This document shows, in pieces, positions 4,109 to 59,345 of a stretch of DNA of 64,000 nucleotides. Positions within the stretch are counted from its first letter, which is position 1. Every line of letters begins with the position of its first letter. The notes beneath the pieces are model-generated. The model worked only from the letters and a program-made list of their open reading frames with translations. It was not told the origin of the DNA and made no database searches. The stretch is from Klebsiella phage N1M2. A program made the position numbers and the translations under genes. Where the stretch lies: the sequence record MN642089.1; one strand, 5' to 3'.

Positions 4109-4136
4109 CTACCACCTACTCTATAGTAGGTGGTAG
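4109..4136. terminator. bidirectional rho-independent terminator (12-bp perfect stem CTACCACCTACT/AGTAGGTGGTAG)
   Basis: Perfect inverted repeat with a 4-nt loop between convergent genes, followed by CTTTATATGTTTGTTTTCTTTTT. Confidence 0.6.
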
Positions 4137-4157: not shown

Positions 4158-4493
4158 TTATTCTCGTCTTACACGAGTTACCTGTATAACGGAATCAATC
4201 TGTTCCGGAGTAACCGTATAAAGACCTGTAAGATGCATAAAGTCTTGATTGGGATCTTCAATACCATTAAGGTAACTGATAGTCCAAATCAGTTCCTCAG
4301 GAATGGTCGGATTCTCACCGCCTAATTGTCTAAGGAATTTGTGGAAGTTATAACGATAAGCAAACTTTATACTATCCCCGATGAATGGAGAGAAAGAAGC
4401 TTGTGCTAATAGGATCTCCTTACAAGAACGAATTATCGTTTTGTATTCTGGAGTGAAGTAATAAGCATTACTATAAGGAACAATTAAAGGCAT
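4158..4493 (-). CDS. hypothetical protein (111 aa from first ATG; the ORF-track start at 4505 is TTG)
   Basis: Minus-strand ORF between the bidirectional hairpin at 4109..4136 and the 4573 gene; AT-rich; the only candidate on this strand here. Confidence 0.35.
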   Translation of the reverse strand: MPLIVPYSNAYYFTPEYKTIIRSCKEILLAQASFSPFIGDSIKFAYRYNFHKFLRQLGGENPTIPEELIWTISYLNGIEDPNQDFMHLTGLYTVTPEQIDSVIQVTRVRRE

Positions 4494-4527
4494 AAAAGCA
4501 TCCAATTAATTTTGAGCCAAAGATAAT

Positions 4528-4553
4528 CAGACAGATATTATCTATATGTAATC
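4528..4553 (+). promoter_or_regulatory. promoter-like conserved element CAGACAGATATTATCTATATGTAATC
   Basis: One of four copies of CAGATATTATyTAynTGTA located 40-55 nt upstream of start codons (4573, 9662, 21170, 52142). Confidence 0.45.
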
Positions 4554-4572: not shown

Positions 4573-6681
4573 ATGAGCAATAAACATAACCAAATAAAAT
4601 CGAATACTGCTGGCCTAGCCATCGGTATGAACCCAAACCGTGCAACTAACTCCTCTGCACGTTTATATATGCTTGGTAAGAACCAAGGTAAAGCTGCCGT
4701 TATCTGGGGTTCTACTAACCGCAAATATTCCTCTGGTGATGAACAAGAATATGCACGAACTGCTCGTAAGGTACAAACTCTCTCTGATGTGGAAGTCGAA
4801 GAGGTTCTGTTTGTACGCGACATCATCAATGACAAAGAACCTAGTATGTGGGGAACGTACTATGTAATCGTGAAGGATCTGGAAACTGGTTTCTATGATC
4901 TCATTGAGATGCCTAAGTTCAATGCTCAAAATATGGACCTTGGGTTCGAGTATCATTATGATAATGACCTGATGCGTCAATTGACCAAAGGTGCACGATT
5001 CCGTAAAGGTACGGTATTCGCAACCAGTGCTCGTATTACTGAGTCCAATGAATGGTGTCCTGGTGTTGAGACTAAAGTAGCTGCAATGTCTCACCCATAT
5101 ACCGAAGAGGATGCGGTATTCATCTTTGAGCATTATGCCAAGAAGATCGGTGTTACATTTAAACGTGGTCTTGAGTTCCAATGGAACGAAGAAGAATATG
5201 TGATGCTGAATCTCTATGGTACTGTTGATAACCATCAAGGTTTCCCACTGTCTGGTGAGAAAGTTCGTAGTGATGGTATTGTAATGGGTTTCCGTCGTAA
5301 AGATCCCGATGCAGCAATGGCTGGTTTAACCAAAGCGGCGTTAATGAATCCGGATCCGATTTATGACCACCTGTTCTATGCATCTCCGAACTGTGTTGTT
5401 GCGGATATCAAAGTTGAGACAGAACGTTATAAGAATCTGTCCAACAACAAGCGTGCTGAAAAACGTAGTCAACCCCATACCAGACTGCTGGAGAAACTGG
5501 AAGAAGAACAAAACAGTTTTGCAAATAGTATCGTTAGCTGGTATCGTTCTAAGCAGAAACAGTATATCGATAAGAAACCACCTCTTACTCGTGAACTGTG
5601 GAACTTCATTACCTTCATGGGTGCCGGTCAGATTACTCGTGACTTCACCACTCCAACATCCAACGGTAAGTTTACTAAGATCAAACGTAAGCTGGGTAAC
5701 ATCCAGTTGAAAGATTGGCGTATCCAGATTAACCTACGTGAAGATGTAGAAGGTCAGGTCCGATTTAAGAATACCGGTATGGATGGTAACAAATCTGTTA
5801 TCATGAAGATTCTACCATCTGAATGCGCTCCGGTAGATGATCATGGTATCATGGCAGATATGGTAGTTGGTAACACTCCTGGCTATCGTCGTCAGATTTT
5901 CAACTCCTTCATGGAATTGGATATCAACTTTGTCAACATTCATCTCTATCCAGAAATCGTTAAGGCATATAAAGCTAAAGACTTCAAAAAGGCTTGGCAG
6001 ATTGCTCGTGATTTCTATGAAACGGTTTCCCCAGACCAAGGTGCAATGGCTGATCTATTCACACCAGAAGAACGAATGGCTCATCTCGACTGGATCATGA
6101 AAGATGAGAATGAGTTCTCTGCTCTAGGTAATAACACCGATGATGTACAGGGTGTTAAAATCATTGAGCGTCTGGCTGATAAGTATCCGTATATTCAACC
6201 TACACCGGTTACCTGGATTAATGAATGGGGCGAGAAGAAACGTAGTCGACATCCTATCGTGATTAGTAGTGTCTATTATATCATGTTGGATAAGTTCGGT
6301 GACGATATCTCTTGTCAGTCTACTCCGAAGCTGAATATCTTTGGGTTGCCGACATCGTTATCTAAACATGAACGTGCTCGCGATTTCTATCGTGCAACAC
6401 TTAACCGAAATGTGGGTGAAACTGAAGGACGACTTTATATTAACCAGAAAGGCGGTGCTGCTGCAGTACGAGTACTTGCACTTGCCAATAGCGCTGAATT
6501 GCTTGAAGAGGCCGTGCGCCGTTTAATCCGTGCACCTAACCCATTCACAATTGAACGCTTAGTTCTGCCTGGTGAAGAGAAGAAGAACCATTCTCTCCAG
6601 GTAATTGATAACATGCTCTCTGACTTTGGTTTAGGATTTAGGAAAGAAAATGAAAACGATAAAGCTGCGCGAGTTCGCTAA
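4573..6681 (+). CDS. multisubunit RNA polymerase beta-subunit-like protein (C-terminal catalytic module)
   Basis: Segment GMDGNKSVIMKILPSECAPVDDHGIMADMVVGNTPGYRRQIFNSFME aligns position by position with the bacterial beta active-site region [43 protein letters not shown]; 702 aa; good RBS. Confidence 0.55.
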   Translation: MSNKHNQIKSNTAGLAIGMNPNRATNSSARLYMLGKNQGKAAVIWGSTNRKYSSGDEQEYARTARKVQTLSDVEVEEVLFVRDIINDKEPSMWGTYYVIVKDLETGFYDLIEMPKFNAQNMDLGFEYHYDNDLMRQLTKGARFRKGTVFATSARITESNEWCPGVETKVAAMSHPYTEEDAVFIFEHYAKKIGVTFKRGLEFQWNEEEYVMLNLYGTVDNHQGFPLSGEKVRSDGIVMGFRRKDPDAAMAGLTKAALMNPDPIYDHLFYASPNCVVADIKVETERYKNLSNNKRAEKRSQPHTRLLEKLEEEQNSFANSIVSWYRSKQKQYIDKKPPLTRELWNFITFMGAGQITRDFTTPTSNGKFTKIKRKLGNIQLKDWRIQINLREDVEGQVRFKNTGMDGNKSVIMKILPSECAPVDDHGIMADMVVGNTPGYRRQIFNSFMELDINFVNIHLYPEIVKAYKAKDFKKAWQIARDFYETVSPDQGAMADLFTPEERMAHLDWIMKDENEFSALGNNTDDVQGVKIIERLADKYPYIQPTPVTWINEWGEKKRSRHPIVISSVYYIMLDKFGDDISCQSTPKLNIFGLPTSLSKHERARDFYRATLNRNVGETEGRLYINQKGGAAAVRVLALANSAELLEEAVRRLIRAPNPFTIERLVLPGEEKKNHSLQVIDNMLSDFGLGFRKENENDKAARVR

Positions 6682-8671
6682 TCTGTCTCTAATCTCCATG
6701 CTTCAATTTACTGAACGTCGTTTCAAGGTTGAAGTTCTGGATGATGTAGGCGAAAAGATCGTGACTGATAGTTGGATGTTAGGTCTTTCCTGGTTTAGTT
6801 TGATTGTTCATCGACACTTCAATGACGAACCTTATCATGTTGATGAATTAGCGGTACTGGTGGCTCCTAAGGGCCGCCAAGCATTTATCGATGATGATAC
6901 GCTTAAGGAACCCATTGATGCGTTCCTGGGTCGTTTGATGCCCAAGTATGATGATCCAGTGTTCTATGATTTCATCAAGCAATTGGTATTCACCTGGCAT
7001 AACCAAGTTCACAACTATATGGCTGTGATCTCTGAAACAGGTGTGGTATCTGCACGTGCGATGGACGTAGTACATTGTTATCGTCACCCTCCGGTAGCCG
7101 ATTTGAAGAAACGAGTTCGGGAAGGTAAGACTAATCTGGCAGATGCTGCTAAAGAGTTCGAAAAGATCATGATGGAAGATCCGGCTTTCGATAAGTCCGT
7201 CTTCGGTCTGTTGTATCGTACTCGTGCGGTTAACCCGACTCAGTCTTTCCAACTGGTAATTGCTCGTGGTGACGTATTCGACTTGAACAACGTAATCTTG
7301 CCGAATACCGTAATGACTTCTTATGCAGATGGCATTACAAACCTGGCTGACTCCTTAGGTGACTCCAAAGGTGCTGGCTTCTCTCTGATCAGTAATGGCT
7401 CTGCGCTACAGGACTCTGAATGGTTCCATAAAAAGATCCATAACGTGTCTCAGGTAGTGCAAGGTATTCGTTATCAATCTGATTGTGGTTCTACAACAGG
7501 TCCGGTACTGAAGATCATCTCCAGAGATTTCAAAATGTCTTTGGCTGGTCGTTATCGTATTAATGACGATGGGACTACAACTCTCTTAACTTATGATGAG
7601 TTGAAGAAGATCGAAACTGGTGACATCATCCGTATTCGTGATGTTGCCTGGTGTAAAGATTCGGGGCATGATGGTAAGCCTTGTTCTGTATGTTTCGGTA
7701 AAATGGAATCTGCACTTCCGTATAATCCATATACTAAGAAGTCTGCAGTCCCTGGTCTGTTCTATGGTTCTACCTTTGCGGAACCTATCGGTCAGTCCAT
7801 TCTGAAAACTAAACACCGTATCGGTTCCGCAACTGCAAAAGGCTTTGTGGTTCAACGTCAGGATGTTGACTATATCACTACAGATGAATCTGGAGACTTC
7901 ATCTATTTCAACAAAGGAATCCTCAACGAAGAAGCTGATCCGTATATCATCCTGGATAAAGAAACCCAGCAGGACTTCTCTGACTTCCAGTTCATGGATA
8001 ACATTGAAGATCTTGATGTGTCTCGTCTGCGTACTTATGAATCCATCAAACTTCGTGTTAACATTGTAAACCCGATGTTCGATAATCGTAAAGCAGTTCA
8101 TTATCCAATCGTGATCACTACGGTGGCTTCCCGTGATGCTCGTATGACAAAGCCGTTCATTGAGTATCTGTTAAGCAAACCAATGGAAGAAGAAGGTCGT
8201 ACATTTAAGATCAGTCTTAAAGACTTCAACTTCAAAGAACCAGCATTCGAACTACCACTGGTAAACGAAGACCTCGATGCTTATCGTAAACGTGTTGAAA
8301 CATTCCTGAAGTTCCCGAATATCAATCGTCGTTGGGATGTCAAAGTAACTCCTGAGTTGCATGGCGAAACCATGATTGCATTCTGGAAGGTAGTGGATGA
8401 GAAGTATAAAGGTGCGAATAGTATTATGCACTCTATCTTCTTGTGGGCATGTATGGCACGAGATCCTGAACATCTGGATTTTGGTATTCCAATTGGCGAC
8501 GAACCACGTAACTTCATTAGTCTGCATGATGCGGTACTGAGTCGTGGTTTGGGTAATACCTTGCTGTATGGTTGGCAGGGTAGTGCGTTGCTGGGTAGTC
8601 CGATCAACTTCTTGATCAAGAATCGACAGGGTGGGGCTCTAGAAGCATTCTGTCATCCAATCACACGTTAA
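6650..8671 (+). CDS. hypothetical protein (673 aa); possibly a further RNAP subunit fragment
   Basis: Overlaps the upstream gene by 32 nt in the +1 frame with its own RBS (AGGAAAG); Cys cluster WCKDSGHDGKPCSVC (C-x10-C-x2-C) suggests a zinc ribbon; no NADFDGD motif seen. Confidence 0.55.
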   Translation: MKTIKLREFANLSLISMLQFTERRFKVEVLDDVGEKIVTDSWMLGLSWFSLIVHRHFNDEPYHVDELAVLVAPKGRQAFIDDDTLKEPIDAFLGRLMPKYDDPVFYDFIKQLVFTWHNQVHNYMAVISETGVVSARAMDVVHCYRHPPVADLKKRVREGKTNLADAAKEFEKIMMEDPAFDKSVFGLLYRTRAVNPTQSFQLVIARGDVFDLNNVILPNTVMTSYADGITNLADSLGDSKGAGFSLISNGSALQDSEWFHKKIHNVSQVVQGIRYQSDCGSTTGPVLKIISRDFKMSLAGRYRINDDGTTTLLTYDELKKIETGDIIRIRDVAWCKDSGHDGKPCSVCFGKMESALPYNPYTKKSAVPGLFYGSTFAEPIGQSILKTKHRIGSATAKGFVVQRQDVDYITTDESGDFIYFNKGILNEEADPYIILDKETQQDFSDFQFMDNIEDLDVSRLRTYESIKLRVNIVNPMFDNRKAVHYPIVITTVASRDARMTKPFIEYLLSKPMEEEGRTFKISLKDFNFKEPAFELPLVNEDLDAYRKRVETFLKFPNINRRWDVKVTPELHGETMIAFWKVVDEKYKGANSIMHSIFLWACMARDPEHLDFGIPIGDEPRNFISLHDAVLSRGLGNTLLYGWQGSALLGSPINFLIKNRQGGALEAFCHPITR

Positions 8672-9588: not shown

Positions 9589-9593
9589 GCTAT

Positions 9594-9624
9594 TACTCAC
9601 CTTCCTTAATTGGAGGGTGGGTAA
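9594..9624 (+). terminator. hairpin terminator (TTACTCACCTTCC / GGAGGGTGGGTAA, with G-U pairs)
   Basis: 13-bp RNA stem allowing U-G pairs, followed by TAAATTTTT. Confidence 0.4.
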
Positions 9625-9635
9625 TAAATTTTTAA

Positions 9636-9652
9636 GTAGATATTATTTATAG
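9636..9652 (+). promoter_or_regulatory. promoter-like element TAGATATTATTTATAGG
   Basis: Shorter copy of the same motif, immediately after a terminator hairpin and upstream of 9662. Confidence 0.35.
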
Positions 9653-9661
9653 GAGTTAGAC

Positions 9662-9931
9662 ATGCAGGTTATTAAAATTGTAAACGGTGAAACTACTGTC
9701 GTTGGAGATTCAAAGTTCACTCACGGCTATTTGGCCAGTGTCACGTTAGAAGATGGTGAACGTCGCACTTATCATAAGCCAACCTACCCTGGTGAGTATG
9801 ATTGGAAAACCGCAGCAAACATCAATTACAATTATGATGGCATGTTGTTGAATCTCAAATTCATTATTGAAGAGAAATCCATCAAAGGTGGTGGATACGG
9901 CTGGAAAGAATGTGAGTTCGTCGTATTCTAA
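9662..9931 (+). CDS. hypothetical small protein (89 aa)
   Basis: ORF preceded by a CAGATATTAT-like element and GGAG RBS; followed by a UUCG-loop terminator at 9951..9968. Confidence 0.5.
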   Translation: MQVIKIVNGETTVVGDSKFTHGYLASVTLEDGERRTYHKPTYPGEYDWKTAANINYNYDGMLLNLKFIIEEKSIKGGGYGWKECEFVVF

Positions 9932-10088: not shown

Positions 10089-11633
10089 ATGCGTAGAACA
10101 TTAGTTGTTCATAAAGCGAGCACATATGTTCGTTTGACTGACTTTAAACCTGAACTCGTGCAGCAAATATTACGTCCTTTTTGTGCTCGTAACTTTTATA
10201 GGGTTCAGAAGGTCCCCATACCCGGCGGTGGACCTAATGCATTCAAAAAGGAAGTGAGTCATGTATTTGCTCGGTTTAATGAAGATAAGAGCGAGTTAAG
10301 GTTTAATGCTGAAAAGCTACCTGATCTTATTAAGTTCATGGAAGAACACGGGTATAGTAAATCTCGTATCCAGGTTTTAGAAGAAGCAGTTATCGATGCA
10401 GCTCCGGCTAACTTGAAACTGAAAGATCCTAAAATCAAACCAAGGAATGAGATTCAGGAAGAATACACTGCATTTATGGGTGGGCCAAAACCTTTAGTTG
10501 TTAACAATATGGGTACTGGTCAAGGTAAAACTTTCTGTGCTATCTGGACAGCGGTACAACTTGGTAAGCGTGTATTGATTACTGTGTTACCTCGTTATGT
10601 CGATATCTGGATTAAAGCATTTGGTGAGTTCCTAGATATCCATCCAACTGACATTTTGGTGGCTGATACATTTGGTGTTGAGAAATTACACCAGACCATG
10701 AAAGATGGATTAATTAACCCGTCAATCATTATTCTGCCGTTAACCAAAATAGATGTGTATATAAAACGTATGAAGGAAGATCCGTCTCTTCCTGGATTGG
10801 ATGAAGTATTCCATGACATGCGTTGTGGTGTGAGAATCATTGATGAAGCACATGAATCGATTTACTCGGTTTATATGTCATTGATGTTTGGGAACCACCA
10901 GAAGACAATGGCATTGTCAGCAACCTTGAAAGGTGATGATGATTTCATTAACTCTATCTATGGACAGATATTCCCAGCTCATTGTTATTTGCGACCACCT
11001 GAGTACACTAAGTATATTCATGTTATCGCTTATAGTCACCGGATGGATGTAAACAAATACCGAATCAATGCTAAAGGGTTTGGTGGTTATTCTCATGTGA
11101 AGTTTGAACAGGGGATAATGAAAAGGAGCTTCGTCTTTGAAGAGTATTACAAAATGCTCAAAGAGGCGTTCGTCACATATTACATGGATACGTATCGAGA
11201 AGGGCAAAAGGCTATGTGGTTCTTTGCAACTATCGAAATGTGTGACTTGTTCCTTAGACGACTTAAACAGGATTATCCTGATTTGGATGCAATCGTATTC
11301 ACAGGTGAGCAGAGTAGTAAGAAGGAAACTAAAACGGCCTATCGTGAGCACCAGGTGGTTATTACAACTCCAGGGTCTTGTGGTACTGGTAAGGACATTC
11401 CTCAGCTCTACATTGTGTTTAGCCCCATTTCTGTGAGTTCTTCACAGCGTAATGATCAGATGGTTGGACGTACTCGACCTATCGATAAATGGTGGCCGGA
11501 TTTGGACCCGATCTTCCTGTACTTCGTTTGTCCAGATATACCTAAGCAAGTAGACTATCACCGTAAACGTAGAACCATCTTTGATAAGAAGATGAAGAAG
11601 TTCACGCTGATTGACTCTGGTTCACGTATTTAA
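10089..11633 (+). CDS. superfamily-2 DEAH-box helicase (ATP-dependent DNA/RNA helicase)
   Basis: Motif I GTGQGKT, motif II IIDEAHES (DEAH), motif III SAT(L), motif VI QMVGRTRP, all in canonical order and spacing. Confidence 0.8.
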   Translation: MRRTLVVHKASTYVRLTDFKPELVQQILRPFCARNFYRVQKVPIPGGGPNAFKKEVSHVFARFNEDKSELRFNAEKLPDLIKFMEEHGYSKSRIQVLEEAVIDAAPANLKLKDPKIKPRNEIQEEYTAFMGGPKPLVVNNMGTGQGKTFCAIWTAVQLGKRVLITVLPRYVDIWIKAFGEFLDIHPTDILVADTFGVEKLHQTMKDGLINPSIIILPLTKIDVYIKRMKEDPSLPGLDEVFHDMRCGVRIIDEAHESIYSVYMSLMFGNHQKTMALSATLKGDDDFINSIYGQIFPAHCYLRPPEYTKYIHVIAYSHRMDVNKYRINAKGFGGYSHVKFEQGIMKRSFVFEEYYKMLKEAFVTYYMDTYREGQKAMWFFATIEMCDLFLRRLKQDYPDLDAIVFTGEQSSKKETKTAYREHQVVITTPGSCGTGKDIPQLYIVFSPISVSSSQRNDQMVGRTRPIDKWWPDLDPIFLYFVCPDIPKQVDYHRKRRTIFDKKMKKFTLIDSGSRI

Positions 11634-13030: not shown

Positions 13031-13036
13031 TCAACT

Positions 13037-13063
13037 CCTTACCCTTCCTAGTGGAGGGTAAGG
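13037..13063 (+). terminator. rho-independent terminator (CCTTACCCTTCC ... GGAGGGTAAGG)
   Basis: Hairpin plus TTATATGTTTATCTTTC. Confidence 0.5.
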
Positions 13064-13097
13064 GTTATATGTTTATCTTTCTATAGGTCCTTTTCTA

Positions 13098-14152: not shown

Positions 14153-14180
14153 CCTACTCACCCAATTAAGGGTGAGTAGG
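14153..14180 (+). terminator. rho-independent terminator (perfect 11-bp stem CCTACTCACCC/GGGTGAGTAGG)
   Basis: Perfect stem, 6-nt loop, then ATTTATATGCTTTCTTTTATTTTG. Confidence 0.6.
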
Positions 14181-14220
14181 ATTTATATGCTTTCTTTTAT
14201 TTTGTTTCAGACCTATATTA

Positions 14221-14244
14221 TTAATATGTGCTTACACATATTAA
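14221..14244. promoter_or_regulatory. perfect palindrome TTAATATGTG-CTTA-CACATATTAA (candidate operator/protein-binding site)
   Basis: 10-bp perfect arms, ~100 nt upstream of the HNH endonuclease gene in AT-rich DNA. Confidence 0.4.
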
Positions 14245-14347: not shown

Positions 14348-15412
14348 ATGACCATACTGATTTATAAAGATACAAATTTCGATATGTTCACTCCAATTCA
14401 ATCTGTATTGGGAGTAGATGATTTAAGTGAAGAAGAAAAAGTAAGAGCCAGAGAAGAACATATCAAAGAACAACTATTGAAAAACCCTCGCTATTACTGC
14501 TGGGATTATTTAAATTACTATAGAACGACTAGAGATAGTGATCTAAAAGAAGGGGAACTCTATCAACCATATATCATGGTTTCATCTAGAGGTGAGATAG
14601 CCTGGTGGATGCCAGAAGAAAATGAAGTTCATGTTACCACCGGAACTCATTCTGCTAATTACCTGATGACGCATATATATGACGATGAAAAGGAAGCATT
14701 TAAAAATATCTACATTCATCGTGCCGTTGCTTCTACCTTTATAAGTAAAAAGGAATCGCATAAAGATATACCTTACTCTAAACTTCAGGTTAACCATAAA
14801 GATGGTAATAAATTATGCCCTCATTTCGGTAATCTAGAATGGAGTACCCAATCTGAAAATAGACAACATGCAATAGACACTGGATTAGTTAAGTCTGGAA
14901 TTGATGATCCAAATACTAAACCAGTACTTGGAACAGTCGTAGTAGATAGCATGTGGAAGGGAACACAGTTTGTTATTTATGGTAGAACCGCTATAAAGAA
15001 TCTTGGTTTAGATCCAGCATCCATTCAACAGACAGTGTCAGGTAAAGCTAAAACTACATATGGATGTTCATGGTCATATATAACCAGGGAAGAAGCTGCC
15101 ACGTATACAAACACAATACCACCTCAATTACTTGATAGAATGGTTAATGATGGTGTAACTTTACTATCTACGACCAAACCAGTTATGGGGACTATAGTAA
15201 TTCCTGGAAAACACCAAGGTGATAAGTTCGTATGCTACGGTGGTAAAGAACTAACTAAGTATGGTTTCCAGCAAGCCCATGTGAGCAGGGCCACCAAAGA
15301 TCCATCAATAGTTAGAAGCGGATGTGTTTGGGAGTATGTTGATTTAAGAAAGGCAGAGACATTACCTAGAGGAATAACTGAAGAACAAAGAGTTACACTA
15401 TTTGGTAAGTAA
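14348..15412 (+). CDS. free-standing HNH homing endonuclease with duplicated C-terminal DNA-binding repeats
   Basis: HNH motif VNHKDGNKLCPHFGNLEWSTQSENRQHA; two C-terminal repeats KPVLGTVVVDSMWKGTQFVIYG... and KPVMGTIVIPGKHQGDKFVCYG...; AT-rich codon usage unlike the neighbours; bracketed by hairpin terminators. Confidence 0.75.
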   Translation: MTILIYKDTNFDMFTPIQSVLGVDDLSEEEKVRAREEHIKEQLLKNPRYYCWDYLNYYRTTRDSDLKEGELYQPYIMVSSRGEIAWWMPEENEVHVTTGTHSANYLMTHIYDDEKEAFKNIYIHRAVASTFISKKESHKDIPYSKLQVNHKDGNKLCPHFGNLEWSTQSENRQHAIDTGLVKSGIDDPNTKPVLGTVVVDSMWKGTQFVIYGRTAIKNLGLDPASIQQTVSGKAKTTYGCSWSYITREEAATYTNTIPPQLLDRMVNDGVTLLSTTKPVMGTIVIPGKHQGDKFVCYGGKELTKYGFQQAHVSRATKDPSIVRSGCVWEYVDLRKAETLPRGITEEQRVTLFGK

Positions 15413-15418
15413 ACATAA

Positions 15419-15445
15419 CCTCTACTCCCATCACGGGAGTAGAGG
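15419..15445. terminator. bidirectional terminator hairpin (perfect 11-bp stem CCTCTACTCCC/GGGAGTAGAGG)
   Basis: Lies between the convergent HNH gene and the minus-strand operon. Confidence 0.5.
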
Positions 15446-15454
15446 TCTGTTATG

Positions 15455-21066: not shown

Positions 21067-21072
21067 TAAGCT

Positions 21073-21103
21073 CCCTACTCCCTCCGAAAGGAAGGGGTAG
21101 GGG
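21073..21103 (+). terminator. rho-independent terminator with a GAAA loop (CCCTACTCCCTCC-GAAA-GGAAGGGGTAGGG)
   Basis: 13-bp stem with one mismatch, then TTTTATGTTG. Confidence 0.55.
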
Positions 21104-21152
21104 TTTTATGTTGTCTATTGATTTTCAAGCAGATATTATTAACATGTATAGG
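21104..21152 (+). promoter_or_regulatory. bipartite conserved intergenic element TTGTCTATTGA ... GCAGATATTATTAACATGTATAGG
   Basis: Both halves are repeated at 52047..52109 in the same order after a terminator. Confidence 0.5.
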
Positions 21153-21169
21153 TAATGAAGGAAACTGAA

Positions 21170-21685
21170 ATGAAAGATACATTTAAGAATATAGGTGAGT
21201 CAGAAGTTAAACATCCAGTCCAAGCTGGCAAAGATCTGATTAACCTGCTGACTAAGAAACGTCGCCATGCGTTCAACTACGTCAACCCAATCCCAGCGGA
21301 ACAATCTTTCCGTGACTGTATTCATTATGACGCTCTGTGGATCGGTAGTAACACAGTTAATACGGTAAAGGAAATCGCTGCTCTGAGCTTCCGCACCAAA
21401 AACCTATTTGAAACTTCTATCATACACCCGTCATATAAGTGCAGGGTGGTTTATGGACAACCGTGTATTGATAGTGAGAGCGATGGTATTATTATCCCAC
21501 TTAAGGCTCATGGTGAAGACTGTCATGCACGTCTGTTCGTTTCTGAGTATCGTGATATCGTTCTCCAGGTTAAACTGGGTCGTGAGTTTGAGTGGTTGAG
21601 TCTACCAGTTAAATCCCACCAAGTTAAAGCAGCTTACGATAAGCTGTTTCCTACCATCCAAGTTCCTAACTGTCCCGTGGAGTAA
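21170..21685 (+). CDS. hypothetical protein (171 aa from the ATG with an AAGGAAA RBS; the ORF track starts at 21155)
   Basis: Preceded by the CAGATATTAT promoter-like element; shares an exact AEQSFRD heptapeptide with 13697..14146. Confidence 0.55.
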   Translation: MKDTFKNIGESEVKHPVQAGKDLINLLTKKRRHAFNYVNPIPAEQSFRDCIHYDALWIGSNTVNTVKEIAALSFRTKNLFETSIIHPSYKCRVVYGQPCIDSESDGIIIPLKAHGEDCHARLFVSEYRDIVLQVKLGREFEWLSLPVKSHQVKAAYDKLFPTIQVPNCPVE

Positions 21686-21687
21686 TA

Positions 21688-21966
21688 ATGACTACTTCTA
21701 CAGTACGCCCAGGTGAACTCACTAATGAGAAATGGGTGGTATCATCCAAAGGTCGTCCATCTAGTTGTGTCGAGATCTCTGCTGTCCAGAATGGCGCACA
21801 TGGTCAGATATCTTGGGGATGGCCAGGGCCAGATAAGATAATCGTACTTGATGATAAAACTGGTTATCATCCAGACTTACCAAATGCTGCAGAGTTAATC
21901 AAAGATGCTGAAGAACTCGCACAAGTGATCTGTGATCACAAAAACAAGAAGTTAGGTTTACTGTAA
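21688..21966 (+). CDS. hypothetical small protein (92 aa)
   Basis: ORF immediately after the previous stop. Confidence 0.5.
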   Translation: MTTSTVRPGELTNEKWVVSSKGRPSSCVEISAVQNGAHGQISWGWPGPDKIIVLDDKTGYHPDLPNAAELIKDAEELAQVICDHKNKKLGLL

Positions 21967-21999
21967 TAATAACCCTCACCAATAAAAAGGAAATACAAT

Positions 22000-22539
22000 A
22001 TGTTACTCAATCAAGAAAATATCACCACCCTGGCTCAGAAACTGTTCGATGCTATCAAAGGTGCTGAACCAAAAGCAACTTCCATTGAAGTTGATAATCT
22101 GGCACTCATCAAAATCATTGATACCGAATGTGACCACGGGATGGGTACCGATGTATTCGGCGTCTACGTTAATGGTAAACGTCAGGGCGTGATACGTCTT
22201 CCATCGGAACTGGGAACAGCCGACCCTGTTCGCGCCACACTATCTCGCCTTATTGGTGAAACGATCAAGAGCAAAGTGGAAGCTATTACTTCCCACATCC
22301 TCTGTGGTGAAGAAGGTATGCCGAACCCAACCTATGTGACTCGCACTCTTAGCATCATTAAGAAGTGTGAAACCACGCAGGGTATCATGGTATACCAGAT
22401 TATCGTTAATGGTGAAATGGTTGCTAACATTCCTCATGAAGGTAAGATCACCGAACATGACTGGATCTACATCACCGTTCGTGGTATTATCCACAACGCA
22501 GCAATGGATGGCGATTATCATCTGACCGTACTCGAATAA
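22000..22539 (+). CDS. hypothetical protein (179 aa)
   Basis: ORF; last gene of the + block before the bidirectional terminator at 22550..22578 and a T9 run. Confidence 0.55.
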   Translation: MLLNQENITTLAQKLFDAIKGAEPKATSIEVDNLALIKIIDTECDHGMGTDVFGVYVNGKRQGVIRLPSELGTADPVRATLSRLIGETIKSKVEAITSHILCGEEGMPNPTYVTRTLSIIKKCETTQGIMVYQIIVNGEMVANIPHEGKITEHDWIYITVRGIIHNAAMDGDYHLTVLE

Positions 22540-22549
22540 CAAACATAAC

Positions 22550-22578
22550 CCCTACCCCTCCTTTCGGAGTGGGTAGGG
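22550..22578. terminator. bidirectional terminator (CCCTACCCCTCC ... GGAGTGGGTAGGG)
   Basis: Lies between convergent genes; a T9 run at ~22592..22600. Confidence 0.55.
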
Positions 22579-22600
22579 ATCTATGATTACTTATTTTTTT

Positions 22601-28466: not shown

Positions 28467-28475
28467 ACAAACATA

Positions 28476-28507
28476 CTCCCTACCCTTCCTTACGGAGGGG
28501 TAGGGGG
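28476..28507. terminator. bidirectional terminator (CTCCCTACCCTTCC-UUAC-GGAGGGGTAGGGGG)
   Basis: 14-bp stem with two U-G pairs, between convergent genes. Confidence 0.55.
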
Positions 28508-28513
28508 ATATGA

Positions 28514-38597: not shown

Positions 38598-38628
38598 TAT
38601 CAGTCTTCTTAAAGCATAATGCTTAATG

Positions 38629-38656
38629 AGAGTAGGGGCCTTCGGGCTCCTACTCT
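38629..38656 (+). terminator. rho-independent terminator AGAGTAGGGGCC-UUCG-GGCTCCTACTCT
   Basis: 12-bp stem, UUCG tetraloop, then TATATGTTTGCTTTT; follows the highly expressed gene 37374..38597. Confidence 0.6.
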
Positions 38657-38705
38657 TATATGTTTGCTTTTAAGAATACTTTGATCTCACATAGGAGTTA
38701 TTTTA

Positions 38706-42597: not shown

Positions 42598-42625
42598 CCT
42601 CTACTCCTTTTATCGGGAGTAGGGG
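42598..42625 (+). terminator. rho-independent terminator (CCTCTACTCC ... GGGAGTAGGGG) ending an ORF-free 200-nt segment
   Basis: Hairpin then TTTGATGTTATG; lies 200 nt downstream of the nearest stop codon. Confidence 0.45.
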
Positions 42626-49801: not shown

Positions 49802-51979
49802 ATGTCTCAAGAACAATCCAAGAACTTCCATTTCATCACCTCTAAATCTGGTGCTGATCTTAAAGCGATGATCAACGGTTTTGCAACCAACCCATCTGTA
49901 CACACTGGTAAAGATCTGGGCCTGGAAAGCATCGTTGGTAAAGAGTCCATGTCTCCGACTCTGCGTAACTTTGAAAAAGGTATGGGCTTCAACCAGCGTA
50001 ATGCTGTTAGCTCTGCTATCAGCGGTATTGCTAACTTCAACCAGCGCGCTCAACAGCTGCAGGACATGATCAAACACGGTGGTATGGAATCTTTCTCCAT
50101 GCAGCTGGATCAAGGTGCTGTTGCTCGTCAGAAAGCTGCTACCATCGACCTGAACGCCCGTTCTAACCGTCAGTGGGCTGCTGCTGAAGCTCTGTTCCCG
50201 ACCCTGGTTGTTCCTTACGATCAAGAAGCTCTGGTTCTGCCAATCGACATCGCTGGTGTTGGTGCATATAACAGCTCCGGTAACGCTAACGAAGCTTGGG
50301 AAGATCTACGTCCGATCGCTTCCGTTCTGGCTGACTCCACCTTCAACGCTGGTGACGACCTGAAACTGGTTCCGGTTCTGCCTGCTAACCCTGCTGATGC
50401 AAACACCGCTATGTTTGTTCCTTCAGCTGATTGGGCTCCGTGGGATGCTACTTATGACACTAACGACCTGCTGGGCCGTGAAACTCATAAAACCAACTAC
50501 CTGGCTATTCGCAAAATCAACAACCTGCTGAGCCTGTGCCGTGCTCCTGGTGCTGCTCCGTTCGAGCAGAACGATGAAATCGAAGCTTCTTCGATCCGTC
50601 TGCAGTCCCTGCTGTTCAAAGTTAAAACCAAAGATGGTGAAGGCTTTGTAACTCTGGACACCGAAAACATGGCTGGTGTTGCAGCTCGTCCTTCTACCGG
50701 TGTTACTTCCGATGAAAAACGTCAGATCAACTTCGTTCTGAACGGCATCAACGTAACCAACCTGAAAGACAAAGATGGTAAAGCTACCGAACTGTTCAAG
50801 TCTCTGACCGACGCTGGTCTGAAAGTATTCCTGAGCTTCGAACTGAGCGCTACCTATAGCCGTTCTACCCGTAGCTGGTCTCCGACTGTTTCTCCTGTTG
50901 CTATCGCTTACGTGATCAACAAAGACGGCGACAAACTGGTCCCAGGTACTCCAGGTATGCCAGAAGACATCACCAACCTGATCACTGCTCAGGCACTGGA
51001 AGCTTCTATCCACGGTATCCTGCTGAAACTGAACCATGCTAACACCAACCGTAGCCGTTACGGTACTACTGTTGTTTACGCTAACACCGTTAAGTCTTAC
51101 AACATCAACCGTCGCCAGCCGATCTCCGTTAAGTATCCGATGCTGAACGAAGATAACAACGCTGACGTTCTGGCAATGCTGGTTCAGCAGATGGACGTAA
51201 TGGTTACCCGTAACATGTCTCACGATGCATTTAAAGCGGCTAACATCCACTTTAACTACGTCTACGACAACAACGGTATGAAGATCGTTAACATCAACGA
51301 CGATTCCTCTTCTGTCCTGCCTGGTCAGCACTTCCTGGGTACCACTGGTATCGAAGCGAAACTGAACCTGGTTAAAGAAGTATCTACTCTGGATAGCAAA
51401 GATACTCGTGATAACATCGAAGCAACTCTGGTCAACAAGATCTATGACGTGATCACTGCGCTGCGTGTTAACTCTAACATCTCTGCTCTGAAAGAACTGG
51501 ATAACCGTCCTGAGTCTTACACCATCGTAGCTCACGCTGCTCTGGCTCCGTTCCTGATGACCACCGGTGACTACCGTACCTTCGGTGAAAATGTTAAGTT
51601 CAACATCGTTGAAACTAACATCAGCTCTGAAGTAGGTCGTATGTGGATCGTTCCGACTTCCATGACCAAAGAAGGTTCTGTTGATATCTTCGGTGGTATG
51701 GGCGTCTGTGTAGCTAAAGAACTGCTGGTAATCGAAGGTTCTGTAAACCAGGCCGATCGTCAATACCGCATGATCATCACTCAGCCTGCATACCAGCACC
51801 ACCCGCTGTGCCCAGTTGTTGGCCGTGTGACCATCGAAGACATCCAGGATCTGCTGGGTGACGAAGGTCTGATCACCAAGGTGAACAAACACCTGGCTGA
51901 AATCAGCGGCAAGATTGCTGTTGACAACGGTACTACTGGTACTGGTAAAGAAGTTGCTATCGAAATCCCTAAAGGTTAA
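49802..51979 (+). CDS. very highly expressed 725-aa virion protein, probably the major capsid protein (tail sheath not excluded)
   Basis: Strongest codon bias in the window; size matches jumbo-phage major capsid proteins; the antisense 489-aa ORF is compositionally nonsense; strong UUCG-loop terminator follows. Confidence 0.65.
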   Translation: MSQEQSKNFHFITSKSGADLKAMINGFATNPSVHTGKDLGLESIVGKESMSPTLRNFEKGMGFNQRNAVSSAISGIANFNQRAQQLQDMIKHGGMESFSMQLDQGAVARQKAATIDLNARSNRQWAAAEALFPTLVVPYDQEALVLPIDIAGVGAYNSSGNANEAWEDLRPIASVLADSTFNAGDDLKLVPVLPANPADANTAMFVPSADWAPWDATYDTNDLLGRETHKTNYLAIRKINNLLSLCRAPGAAPFEQNDEIEASSIRLQSLLFKVKTKDGEGFVTLDTENMAGVAARPSTGVTSDEKRQINFVLNGINVTNLKDKDGKATELFKSLTDAGLKVFLSFELSATYSRSTRSWSPTVSPVAIAYVINKDGDKLVPGTPGMPEDITNLITAQALEASIHGILLKLNHANTNRSRYGTTVVYANTVKSYNINRRQPISVKYPMLNEDNNADVLAMLVQQMDVMVTRNMSHDAFKAANIHFNYVYDNNGMKIVNINDDSSSVLPGQHFLGTTGIEAKLNLVKEVSTLDSKDTRDNIEATLVNKIYDVITALRVNSNISALKELDNRPESYTIVAHAALAPFLMTTGDYRTFGENVKFNIVETNISSEVGRMWIVPTSMTKEGSVDIFGGMGVCVAKELLVIEGSVNQADRQYRMIITQPAYQHHPLCPVVGRVTIEDIQDLLGDEGLITKVNKHLAEISGKIAVDNGTTGTGKEVAIEIPKG

Positions 51980-52014: not shown

Positions 52015-52046
52015 CCTCCTACCTCACCTTCGGGTGGGGTAGGGGG
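52015..52046 (+). terminator. rho-independent terminator CCTCCTACCTCACC-UUCG-GGTGGGGTAGGGGG + T5
   Basis: 14-bp stem, UUCG loop, TTTTTGTTG; follows the putative major capsid gene. Confidence 0.65.
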
Positions 52047-52109
52047 TTTTTGTTGTCTATTGAAAATAACTTCTAAAAATGTTTAGGCAGATATTATCTA
52101 CTTGTAAAC
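52047..52109 (+). promoter_or_regulatory. bipartite conserved intergenic element TTGTCTATTGA ... GGCAGATATTATCTACTTGTAAAC
   Basis: Second copy; lies between the capsid-gene terminator and the GTG-start gene. Confidence 0.5.
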
Positions 52110-52141
52110 GTATGATCGTTTATAAACAAGAGGATATATAA

Positions 52142-53230
52142 GTGGCTAGAGTTAGTGGTGATAATTGGCATCACGGCTGGGACACTCCATATGTCGAAGG
52201 TATTGAATATTTCAACTATACTGACTTTGATATCACTGTGACTGATAAGTTAGGTGTAGAGTGTGAGATATTGCGATCTGACGAACGCCCTGCAAGGTTA
52301 GAAGACCGAGGTAAGGTGATTGTTAGGATTACTCGCTTAATCGATCCTAGACGTGTTAGAGTCCCAAGTACTGATGCACAACTTGCAGCCGATAGAATGT
52401 ATCTTGAATCTTTCAAGGAAGCTGTCGAGAATGCAAGTAAAAATAGGATAGGGATTTATGAATCTGAACATAATCAGATCAGAGTTACGTGTCAAGCAGA
52501 AATTCGGTTAGACTTCTATCTTCAGAATACCGTTGTTAAATCCAACCTGTTGGGGATTACTGTCCGTGCAACGAATAATGTCGTTGATAAATCGCACGGT
52601 AACACACCAGAAGGATATATCAATGATGTCATTCTGAATGAATTAAAGGATGCCGATGAACAAGCGGATGAAGGGCAGGATAAAGGTATCCGAACTTTAT
52701 TCTCCGCTAGATTAATTGATAACCATAATCGGGTCGGTACTTTATGGACCACAGGGTTCGGTGAAGTGACCAGGATTATCCCAGTAAAAGATGAGGAGCA
52801 AGCAGAAGGGCTATATTTAGCCGGTGGATTAGGATTACAACATAAAGAATTTATTCCAATTGAAGAACTCATTCAACCCAAAAGAATGCTGGGACTGAAT
52901 GTTCATCGTACTGAAATAGATGCCAGGAAATTTGGCTTAGGAGAATATACCATTTCGGTTATGACCGAACGAGATAAAATTAGAAAAGAATGTAAAGATC
53001 TACGTACTGAAAACAAGAAGCTTGCTAGTAAAGTGGATGACTTGGAAAACAAGATCAGTATCGAAAAGATCAATAAGGCCCATGGTGATTTTAAACACAC
53101 AGTCTCTATGGAATATATAAAAGAAAACAACGTTAATAATGCTTTAGGTGGATTTTCGAGGTTAGTTTCTCTCGTCGTGTCCAACATTAAAACATTTATA
53201 AGCCTTGCTTCTATACTAAGAGCGATGTAA
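52142..53230 (+). CDS. hypothetical protein (362 aa), GTG start
   Basis: GTG preceded by AAGAGGA at 7-nt spacing; no in-frame ATG until ~residue 85; preceded by the CAGATATTAT element. Confidence 0.5.
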   Translation: MARVSGDNWHHGWDTPYVEGIEYFNYTDFDITVTDKLGVECEILRSDERPARLEDRGKVIVRITRLIDPRRVRVPSTDAQLAADRMYLESFKEAVENASKNRIGIYESEHNQIRVTCQAEIRLDFYLQNTVVKSNLLGITVRATNNVVDKSHGNTPEGYINDVILNELKDADEQADEGQDKGIRTLFSARLIDNHNRVGTLWTTGFGEVTRIIPVKDEEQAEGLYLAGGLGLQHKEFIPIEELIQPKRMLGLNVHRTEIDARKFGLGEYTISVMTERDKIRKECKDLRTENKKLASKVDDLENKISIEKINKAHGDFKHTVSMEYIKENNVNNALGGFSRLVSLVVSNIKTFISLASILRAM

Positions 53231-53242
53231 CTAGGAGTTAAA

Positions 53243-54937
53243 ATGGATCCACAATTTCTGAAGAAAGTGAGAAAGCAACGCGGAGGCTTTACTCAAGCTT
53301 TAGTTGATGGGTGGCATAAAAAGGACATGGACAGGATTGTTCCACACCTGACCAAGTGCTTTGAAAATATGTTCAGGTCTCTACAGGAAAAGGGCTATTA
53401 TTTCGATGGGATTGAGGAAGTGTGTCCTCTTGAGTTCTATAACTCGATCACTCGTTCTAGTAGTAGTGGGACCAAGGATTTTGAAATCGCCAAGAACAGT
53501 TTCTTTGGAGTTCGTATCAAGAACCATTTCAAAGATCCTGTAACTGGTATTGAATCAGAATTAAAATGCCCTCTGATGTTCTTACCTTATACCAATATCT
53601 ACGGTGACATCTATACACGTAACTCCACATATTCCATGCAATATGTGTTGTCTGAACGTGGTCCTTCTGTTGATGGTGGTCGTGACAAAACCATTTTCAT
53701 CAGGGTGTTGGGTTATAAGTTTAAAGTAACTAAAGAGATCCACACATTTAACCGTGTATTCCGCAGTGGAAACAAAGTTAATACTGGTGCGATCAATATG
53801 ACGCTTCCAGCTAACCGTTTCTATAACTCCAAAAATGATCGCAAGATCACCAGTAAGAAAGTTCCAATTCCATTACTGGCCTGGTACGTGTTTGGTAAAT
53901 ATGGATTCACACACTGCATGAAACAATTTGCAGAATGTGATTACATGATCGACACCTTAGACACTCTGCTCGATATTTGTCCAGAGTCTGATGGTTGGCA
54001 GATCTATTCCAACACAGGTTGCATTCATCCAAAAGCATTCGATCGCCCTAAAGGCGCTCCGCTGTTAGATGAACCAGCAATTGCGATTAAGAGCATTAAC
54101 AAAGGTGGTGAAATCTCCAACCTTGCACTGCAATATACCGCAGGGCTGTTGTTCATGTTTGGTGTCTTCAGTCACGAATTAGATATTCGTCGTCTGGATG
54201 ATATTAACTATTGGCGTCTGATCATTGGCAGGTGTTCTATTCGCCTACCAGCTAAAACTCTACCTGATGTTTATCTGCGTCAGATGAACGAGCACTTCAG
54301 CTCTGTAGAGGAATATGCTGATGACATCACCATCGACAAGTATAATAAGTTTGACATTGAAGTTCGTGACACTTATGAGTTACTGAACTATCTCATGATG
54401 AACTATTCTAACTTGATCAAACTGTATGACCCTGCGAACATGCTTCATAAAGAAGTAGCCTCTATGGAATTCATCGTCGACTTCCTGATTCACCAGGCGA
54501 ACGACTTTAAGTTCATGATTCGTAATAAAAGTAATATCACGCCGAAGATTATCAACCGAGAACTAGACGCTCACTTCCGTCTGTTTAATGCTGATAAATC
54601 CGTACGCGAAAATAACACCATACTCGAACAGACTGGTACCGATAATCCATTCATCGACTATGGACTGGGAATTATCCTTCAAACCAAATCCACCGTTAAC
54701 CGCGGTCCTGGTAAGAAGAAGGAAGAATTTGATCCCAACCATCCCGGTAGTATCATCCACGCATCTCAGCCTTTTGTTGTGTCTTATCAGTTCTCTACTA
54801 AACCTAACCCAGATGCTCGTGGTTTCTTCCAACCGCGTGTTCACTTGGATCAGGATAAGTATACTGGTTTAAGACCTGAAGACAGGGCGTTGTATGAAGC
54901 TACTGAACACAGACTTAAGTTTAGAGAAGGTAAATAA
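53243..54937 (+). CDS. hypothetical protein (564 aa)
   Basis: ORF with an AGGAG RBS. Confidence 0.6.
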   Translation: MDPQFLKKVRKQRGGFTQALVDGWHKKDMDRIVPHLTKCFENMFRSLQEKGYYFDGIEEVCPLEFYNSITRSSSSGTKDFEIAKNSFFGVRIKNHFKDPVTGIESELKCPLMFLPYTNIYGDIYTRNSTYSMQYVLSERGPSVDGGRDKTIFIRVLGYKFKVTKEIHTFNRVFRSGNKVNTGAINMTLPANRFYNSKNDRKITSKKVPIPLLAWYVFGKYGFTHCMKQFAECDYMIDTLDTLLDICPESDGWQIYSNTGCIHPKAFDRPKGAPLLDEPAIAIKSINKGGEISNLALQYTAGLLFMFGVFSHELDIRRLDDINYWRLIIGRCSIRLPAKTLPDVYLRQMNEHFSSVEEYADDITIDKYNKFDIEVRDTYELLNYLMMNYSNLIKLYDPANMLHKEVASMEFIVDFLIHQANDFKFMIRNKSNITPKIINRELDAHFRLFNADKSVRENNTILEQTGTDNPFIDYGLGIILQTKSTVNRGPGKKKEEFDPNHPGSIIHASQPFVVSYQFSTKPNPDARGFFQPRVHLDQDKYTGLRPEDRALYEATEHRLKFREGK

Positions 54938-54940
54938 GAA

Positions 54941-58533: not shown

Positions 58534-58622
58534 AATAATGGCCTGAGATTCAGTTGAAAGAAATTTCAGGTCTATATCATCTAAGTGTATAAGACAATAA
58601 ATATTTATACATGGAGATCTAT

Positions 58623-59291: not shown

Positions 59292-59321
59292 ACCTCCTAC
59301 TCACCGATTGGTGAGTAGGAG
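59292..59321. terminator. bidirectional terminator (perfect 13-bp stem CCTCCTACTCACC/GGTGAGTAGGAGG)
   Basis: Lies between convergent genes; a T8 run at ~59340. Confidence 0.6.
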
Positions 59322-59345
59322 GATTAACTTAGTTACTTATTTTTT

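Follow-up and report, generated by a model that had tools for sequence, protein, structure and literature searches.

The element that recurs in the window (i.e. the whole 64,000-nt stretch of DNA analysed here), with one copy at position 21,123, is very probably an early-class promoter of an OBP-like, phiKZ-related jumbo phage of the Petsuvirus group, as judged by analogy with its studied relatives. The observation itself is confirmed and extended from the four copies noticed originally to six. By the same analogy, transcription from these sites would belong to the early stage of infection, and the enzyme would most likely be a virion RNA polymerase (vRNAP) initiating at a conserved G. The original prediction had proposed either a promoter for a phage-specific RNA polymerase (RNAP) or a binding site for a regulator; the promoter is the best-supported reading, given the match to the OBP consensus, the ATATTAT-(6N)-G rule, the polarity of the sites and their position in front of genes for non-virion RNAP (nvRNAP) subunits.

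The window was assigned to its lineage by nucleotide and protein comparisons. Its top megablast matches are the Serratia phages Sureiya and Yubaba (~87 % identity), followed at greater distance by Shewanella phage SXP01 and Pseudomonas phage OBP; taxonomically, Sureiya, OBP and pEt-SU belong to Petsuvirus. The capsid protein (gene 49802-51979) belongs to the phiKZ gp120 major-capsid family (PhiKZ_MCP, E = 3e-188), and gene order in the RNAP region and in the capsid region agrees with that of the relatives fetched for each. Megablast, gene order and capsid family together place the phage in the OBP/Petsuvirus group. The proteins of genes 4573-6681 and 6650-8671 are homologues of phiKZ gp71-73 and gp74, that of gene 53243-54937 is a homologue of phiKZ gp123, and all of them match the nvRNAP subunits solved in PDB 7OGP. 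Taken with the capsid family, these homologues indicate, as the source of the window, a phiKZ-related jumbo phage that has a multisubunit transcription machinery of its own. No vRNAP genes were found within the 64-kb window; in Sureiya, extra beta/beta'-like genes adjoin virion genes (SUREIYA_00950, 00960 and 00120) and have weak Pfam scores (Rpb2_6, E = 9e-4; Rpb1_2, E = 2e-6). Rfam gave no known RNA family anywhere in the window, and an exact-sequence search with the 21123 site gave no match in the viral contig collection.

Copies of the element and their orientation

The four copies quoted in the original prediction are all present where it had placed them. The octamer GATATTAT occurs 10 times in the window against 3.4 expected, and among these occurrences longer flanks are common only to the four intergenic + strand copies. 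Searching for the originally proposed 19-mer consensus with up to 3 mismatches retrieved three copies (4532, 21130 and 52088) against 0.29 expected; the copy at 9636 is weaker, with 4 mismatches to this consensus, but is real by a wider test based on the OBP consensus. In that test, the 24-nt OBP core consensus TTTYARRYAKATATTATYWWADTG, searched with up to 3 mismatches, found 6 sites in the window against 0.08 expected, the maximum being 1 site in 100 shuffles. The six sites (Table 1) differ from the OBP core by 1-3 mismatches and include two copies beyond the original four, i.e. 14205-14228 (TTTCAGACCTATATTATTAATATG), seen on reading all intergenic regions, and 58564-58587 (TTTCAGGTCTATATCATCTAAGTG), seen by consensus search. 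Each lies between genes, on the + strand and ahead of + strand genes, and the minus strand of the window holds no copy of the element.

As an independent test, a 45-column weight matrix was built only from the 26 sites that the OBP consensus finds, all on one strand, in the complete Sureiya genome, which had been assembled from six fetched pieces. Applied to the window, this matrix recovered the same six sites at 27.5-44.9 bits; everything else in the window scored below 8 bits, and the best shuffled score was 13.6. On the Sureiya genome it gave 27 sites above 26 bits, the next best reaching 12.6. The GenBank CDS tables put every one of the 27, again all on one strand, between annotated CDS and immediately ahead of a co-oriented gene; simple ORF calling had put 7 of the 27 in coding DNA, an artefact of over-extended ORFs. 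The original prediction had named equal frequency inside coding regions, or random orientation, as evidence against itself. Neither was observed, intergenic and co-oriented sites making up 6/6 in the window and 27/27 in Sureiya, and the element is therefore not a chance motif.

Two further statements about the placement of the copies fared less well. The distance to the start codon, thought to be fixed, is not so, the predicted +1 G preceding that codon by anything from 9 to 120 nt. A position just downstream of a terminator was found directly at 9630, 21123 and 52081, whereas there is no terminator at 4525; as for the two added copies, a terminator lies directly upstream of 14205 and no clear one was seen at 58564.

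Table 1. Predicted early promoters and terminators of the window (scores from the Sureiya-trained matrix)
Feature	Position	Strand	Motif start	Core	Predicted +1 G	Score (bits)	Sequence or remark
Early promoter copy 1	4510-4548	+	4525	4535-4541	4548	32.5	
Early promoter copy 2	9615-9653	+	9630	9640-9646	9653	27.5	weakest copy
Early promoter copy 3	14190-14228	+	14205	14215-14221	14228	30.8	
Early promoter copy 4	21108-21146	+	21123	21133-21139	21146	42.5	
Early promoter copy 5	52066-52104	+	52081	52091-52097	52104	42.5	
Early promoter copy 6	58549-58587	+	58564	58574-58580	58587	44.9	core ATATCAT
Terminator hairpin and tail	21071-21121	+					CTCCCTACTCCCTCC-gaaa-GGAAGGGGTAGGGG, tail TTTTATGTTGTCTATTGA
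Major capsid gene terminator and tail	52015-52063	+					stem 52015-52046, tail TTTTTGTTGTCTATTGA
Terminator family	4109-4136						
Terminator family	13036-13064						
Terminator family	14153-14180						
Terminator family	15413-15454						
Terminator family	21071-21104						
Terminator family	22540-22600						
Terminator family	28467-28513						
Terminator family	38626-38659						
Terminator family	42598-42625						
Terminator family	52015-52046						
Terminator family	59293-59322						

Anatomy, gene context and conservation

In all six window sites, the core ATATTAT or ATATCAT is followed by six bases and then a G; five have the exact core ATATTAT and the variant ATATCAT occurs once, at 58564. 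A G six bases past the core is also found in 25 of the 26 Sureiya sites. In an ungapped alignment of the six, the invariant columns are an A 29 nt before the G, the G itself, one T and one A of the TTTYA block, and the ATAT and AT of the core. This A, which stands at the position of the A in the consensus A-WWWWW-TTT, is invariant in 6/6 window and 26/26 Sureiya sites. Relative to the predicted +1, the parts of the element are the invariant A at -29, preceded in about half of the copies by TTG(T/A) as a weak element, then TTTYARRYAK at -23 to -14, ATATTAT at -13 to -7, and T-1/G+1. The element hence shows the AT-rich sequence near -10 and the conserved G 6 nt further on that are typical of jumbo-phage early promoters, the start being predicted.

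Early promoters of other jumbo phages have a comparable layout. The early consensus of AR9 is AAATATATATTAT-(6N)-G(+1), and the early promoters of phiKZ and phiR1-37 start 6 nt downstream of the element (PMC5312081); judged by sequence, the window element obeys the spacing rule of the mapped vRNAP promoters of these three phages. The early promoters of phiKZ combine an extended -10 with a T-rich block upstream of -19 (PMC8244752), and those of 201phi2-1 have conserved -10, -20 and -30 regions (PMC11512511). The four-part anatomy predicted here parallels both arrangements.

Some of the predicted leaders start with a hairpin at +1 (52104-52123, also 14222-14239 and 58588-58610). The one at 52104, GTAAACG-tatgat-CGTTTAT, is kept in OBP (GTAAAC/GTTTAC) and Kc263 (GTAAACG/CGTTTA) with a changed loop and stem end. 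As a general feature, a 5'-terminal leader hairpin was considered and rejected: it is present in about one third of the leaders and, since the folding z-score against shuffles is not significant over the 33 predicted leaders (mean -0.43), no generality is claimed for it.

Two copies stand in front of nvRNAP genes. Copy 1 heads genes 4573-6681 and 6650-8671, and copy 5 heads the operon 52142-57352, which includes the gp123 homologue. Beside copy 1, the minus-strand ORF 4158-4505 looked spurious at first; it matches phrog_3455 (E = 2e-24) and is annotated in Sureiya, OBP, SXP01, pEt-SU and AVP1, so that copy 1 sits in a divergent intergenic region of 67 nt without a terminator. Copy 2 directly follows the terminator hairpin 9591-9626 and precedes an 89-aa ORF and then the helicase-like gene 10089-11633. 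Its predicted +1 lies only 9 nt before the ATG at 9662, and a leader this short would cut into the Shine-Dalgarno sequence, a point against the early-promoter reading. Copy 3 follows the terminator 14153-14180 and has a predicted leader of 120 nt to the HNH endonuclease gene 14348-15412. This gene, with its own early promoter and wedged between two terminators, is likely an early-expressed homing endonuclease.

Small genes of unknown function lie downstream of copy 4, which has its invariant A (-29) at 21117, TTTCAAGCAG at 21123-21132 and 1 mismatch to the OBP consensus. Copy 6, the best matrix score in the window, is upstream of ORF 58611/58623-59285, which encodes an unknown protein of ~220 aa. 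Shine-Dalgarno sequences precede the ATGs at 21170 and 58623, and the in-frame ATGs upstream of them, at 21155 and 58611, have none. From this arrangement, the true start codon behind copy 4 is likely 21170 (AAGGA, 7 nt, ATG) and not 21155, and the one behind copy 6 is probably 58623, preceded by GGAG, and not 58611. No site was found in front of the capsid gene 49802 or of the window genes for which the counterpart in Sureiya carries a virion-structural annotation. Gene context thus agrees with another trait of jumbo-phage early promoters, namely presence ahead of nvRNAP genes and absence from structural genes.

Sureiya has an orthologue of every one of the six window sites, and the element has been retained at orthologous places across at least five genera. 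Copy 1 is identical in Sureiya. Ahead of the orthologous gene it is also kept in OBP, SXP01, pEt-SU and AVP1, an Aeromonas phage of the genus Ferozepurvirus whose gp71-73 homologue is only 67 % identical as a protein. Copy 5 has a counterpart at the corresponding position in Sureiya, OBP and pEt-SU, and also in AH04, an Erwinia phage (Meadowvirus), and Kc263, a Kosakonia phage (Branisovskavirus). For copy 2 the orthologous Sureiya site is kept, and for copy 3 the motif is identical in Sureiya, the first difference occurring 1 nt past the predicted +1.

The loci at 21123 and 58564 are informative because their flanks have been replaced and the promoter blocks retained. At 21123, homology to Sureiya spans the terminator and the promoter and ends 4-5 nt after the predicted +1; past this breakpoint lie genes 21170-21685 and 21688-21966, without Sureiya counterpart. 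The window thus has a two-gene insertion relative to Sureiya (21151-21967), with homology resuming at the leader of gene 22000-22539, and Sureiya has instead an extra promoter and the small gene SUREIYA_02460 further downstream. At 58564, homology to Sureiya starts ~15 nt before the motif, the sequence further upstream being unrelated.

Terminators, rival explanations and proposed mechanism

A longer bipartite element had also been proposed for the loci at 21104 and 52047, a proposal that holds only in part. The 11-mer common to both loci, TTGTCTATTGA, does exist and occurs exactly twice in the window (21111 and 52053), but it belongs to the terminator tail. At both loci it directly follows GGGGTAGGGG(G)TTTTnTG, which forms the 3' arm of a terminator with its T-rich tail, and it stands 22 nt from the core at 21111 vs 38 nt at 52053. 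Because these distances to ATATTAT differ, by 16 nt, the 11-mer is not a second promoter half at fixed spacing. The 3' arm and tail of 21071-21121 recur at 52033-52063. At 21111, the tail overlaps the -35 to -25 part of copy 4 and is in register with the -30 element of the promoter, its A at 21117 being the invariant A; three Sureiya promoters have TGTCTA in the same register. At 52053, TTGTCTATTGA does not line up with the -30 element, whose place is taken by CTTCTAAAAAT. OBP, AH04 and Kc263 retain both the terminator behind the capsid gene and its TTGTCTAT tail, and pEt-SU does so in part; TTGTCTAT is therefore best read as part of the terminator and not as a distal promoter half.

The terminator hairpins form a dispersed sequence family (Table 1), their stems sharing CCTAC(T/C)C…G(G/A)GTAGG and their tails being TTATATGTTT (T(T)TATATG(T/C)TT type) or TTATGTTTG. 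Terminator copies of 40-68 nt recur at six or more further places in Sureiya, with 81-91 % identity. Conserved terminator motifs have already been reported for phiKZ and 201phi2-1. The TATG of the tails was also considered as a phiKZ-type late promoter (TATG, G = +1) and rejected as the main reading: bidirectional terminators between convergent genes carry the tail on both strands, with no gene behind it, so that it looks like a terminator feature.

Three other readings of the element were weighed. If terminator tail and promoter formed one bipartite unit, TTGTCTATTGA would be a distal element (UP-like or activator-binding) at some promoters. The occurrence of the 11-mer at only two places in 64 kb, both upstream of a promoter copy, would fit this idea, as would the conservation of TTGTCTAT after the capsid terminator and the register of TGTCTA with the -30 element at 21111 and in the three Sureiya promoters. 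We nevertheless consider it improbable: besides the 16-nt difference in spacing to the core and the replacement by CTTCTAAAAAT in register at 52081, the position of TTGTCTATTGA is fixed relative to the terminator stem and not to the promoter, the other four copies are without it, and other terminator tails carry the related T-rich TGTTTG/TGTTGT with no promoter nearby. It is more doubtful still that the element is a strong host sigma-70 promoter, with TATTAT as -10 and a TTG-type -35, used immediately after infection. TATTAT does differ from TATAAT at one position, 21111-21139 was flagged as TTGTCT-17-TATTAT with 9/12 matches, TTG(T/A)A occurs near -33 in about half of the copies, and according to PMC5468394 some phiKZ-related phages without a virion RNAP subunit depend on host RNAP. 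At a spacing of 16-18 nt, however, the best -35 match of 33 sites averages 2.76/6, no better than the 2.53/6 of random positions in the genome; only the 21111 site and a few others reach 4/6, which falls short of a sigma-70 -35 element, and TTG(T/A)A sits at a 15-nt spacing. The invariant A at -29, TTT at -23 to -21, ATAT before the hexamer and T-1/G+1 are not sigma-70 contacts, and a nearly fixed sequence of 40 nt is unlike the degenerate sigma-70 pattern. Moreover, the motif is absent from all other intergenic regions, it is kept in phages of Pseudomonas, Serratia, Aeromonas, Shewanella, Edwardsiella, Erwinia and Kosakonia, and the homologous phiKZ motif works in the presence of rifampicin (PMC7598289, PMC13282480).

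Least probable of all, in our view, is an operator by which a phage-encoded regulator (repressor or activator) would coordinate a regulon, the real promoter lying elsewhere. This was the second explanation offered originally, and it draws on the near-palindrome AGATA-T-TATCT in the core of some copies and on the lambda-repressor-like and winged-helix proteins encoded by Sureiya. The palindrome is not conserved across copies, though, the K, Y and W positions varying and many copies reading TATATTATTA, and the polarity of the sites is absolute; for these two reasons a regulator site is not favoured. Conservation is asymmetric over ~40 nt, with 33/33 sites co-oriented with the downstream gene, the spacing to the conserved G matches the mapped starts of relatives (PMC5312081), and no other candidate promoter is common to these regions.

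For an early promoter read by a phage polymerase, which we favour, the following mechanism can be proposed by analogy with phiKZ, AR9 and phiR1-37. A multisubunit vRNAP would be packaged in the capsid and injected with the DNA, bind the extended promoter of ~40 bp and start at the conserved G six bases past the core, a step that would require neither host RNA polymerase nor new protein synthesis. Initiation at this G would give leaders of 9 to 120 nt. Each copy would head a transcription unit, often right after the terminator of the preceding unit, and the early transcripts would encode, among others, the nvRNAP subunits, which would take over middle and late transcription. In phiKZ, initiation by the vRNAP at 28 early promoters leads to expression of the nvRNAP subunits (PMC13282480), a scheme with which the copies before the gp71-73/gp74 and gp123 homologues are consistent. 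This gene-class argument is suggestive and not strict, since in 201phi2-1 some nvRNAP genes are without a nearby early promoter (PMC11512511). Our literature search found no transcription-start, timing or transcriptome data for any OBP-clade phage.

The result leaves current understanding unchanged, and its value lies first in annotation: the element marks six transcription-unit starts and predicts early genes, including two nvRNAP operons, and several unknown small genes behind the sites are candidates for host takeover. It also adds cross-genus conservation (A at -29, T-1/G+1) to a promoter class of the clade known from sequence prediction, and this conservation could guide mutagenesis or structural work on DNA recognition by the sigma-less vRNAP.

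Comparison with known promoters and gene-cassette modules

The closest parallels are within the OBP clade. In Table 2 of PMC7058600, the predicted promoters are given as BSHAWWWWWTTTYARRYAKATATTATYWWADTG for OBP, cited from the 2012 OBP genome paper, and as TBYAWWWWWTTTCARRYAKATATTATYWAAGTGWA for Klebsiella phage N1M2 (31 sites); according to the same source, the OBP motif has been judged phage-specific and early. The window element belongs to this family, already described from sequence for OBP and N1M2, to which the window adds copies. As in the window, the predicted early promoter of OBP and N1M2 has an A five W-positions upstream of TTT and heads non-structural operons, including RNAP beta-like genes, and copy numbers per genome are similar (27 in Sureiya, 31 in N1M2). 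In the window as in the cited papers, the OBP-clade element is predicted from sequence, and the nearest sequenced genome stands at ~87 % nucleotide identity.

On a broader scale, an AT-rich motif of ~10 nt, centred near -10, can be detected bioinformatically ahead of the early operons in every jumbo phage that encodes an RNAP; in all cases with profiled transcripts it turned out to be the early promoter, and the virion RNAP must be the enzyme that reads it (PMC7598289). The window element is homologous to the experimentally mapped vRNAP promoters of phiKZ and AR9. The early promoters of phiKZ have the core TATATTAC, with 28-32 sites mapped by dRNA-seq and 5' RACE. They resemble the window sites in their AT-rich core of extended -10 type, (T)ATATTA(T/C), in a T-rich block farther upstream than ~-19 and in a start that lies a few bases past the core; like them, they serve to express nvRNAP subunits, in a phage of the same family with the same two-polymerase strategy. 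They differ in the last core base, C instead of T, in the flanks (TTTYARRYAK and the A at -29 in the window) and in host range, and they are mapped experimentally whereas the window sites are predicted. AR9 shares with the window the identical core heptamer ATATTAT and the identical 6-nt spacing to a conserved G start. A single deviation from the AR9 consensus can abolish promoter use (PMC5312081), an intolerance that fits the sharp score gap seen in the window. AR9 differs in that its DNA contains uracil and that it forms no nucleus; it is a distant relative only, and the upstream part of its promoter is a plain A/T run instead of TTTYARRYAK.

The 21123 and 58564 loci, by their sequence, suggest cassette exchange at promoter/terminator modules, for which the dispersed terminator arms with 81-91 % identity could be recombination substrates. 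That modules of terminator and early promoter act as recombination joints for accessory-cassette swaps in OBP-like jumbo phages is a tentative idea, to which we give a rather low probability. In T4-type phages, PeSL cassettes are promoter-early stem-loop modules that flank mobile ORFs and use host sigma-70 early promoters. The window resembles them in that a terminator hairpin followed by an early promoter recurs at gene-cassette boundaries and that, at 21123 and 58564, homology with the nearest relative breaks at the module edges; it differs in that the promoter of its modules is predicted to be of the vRNAP type instead of sigma-70.
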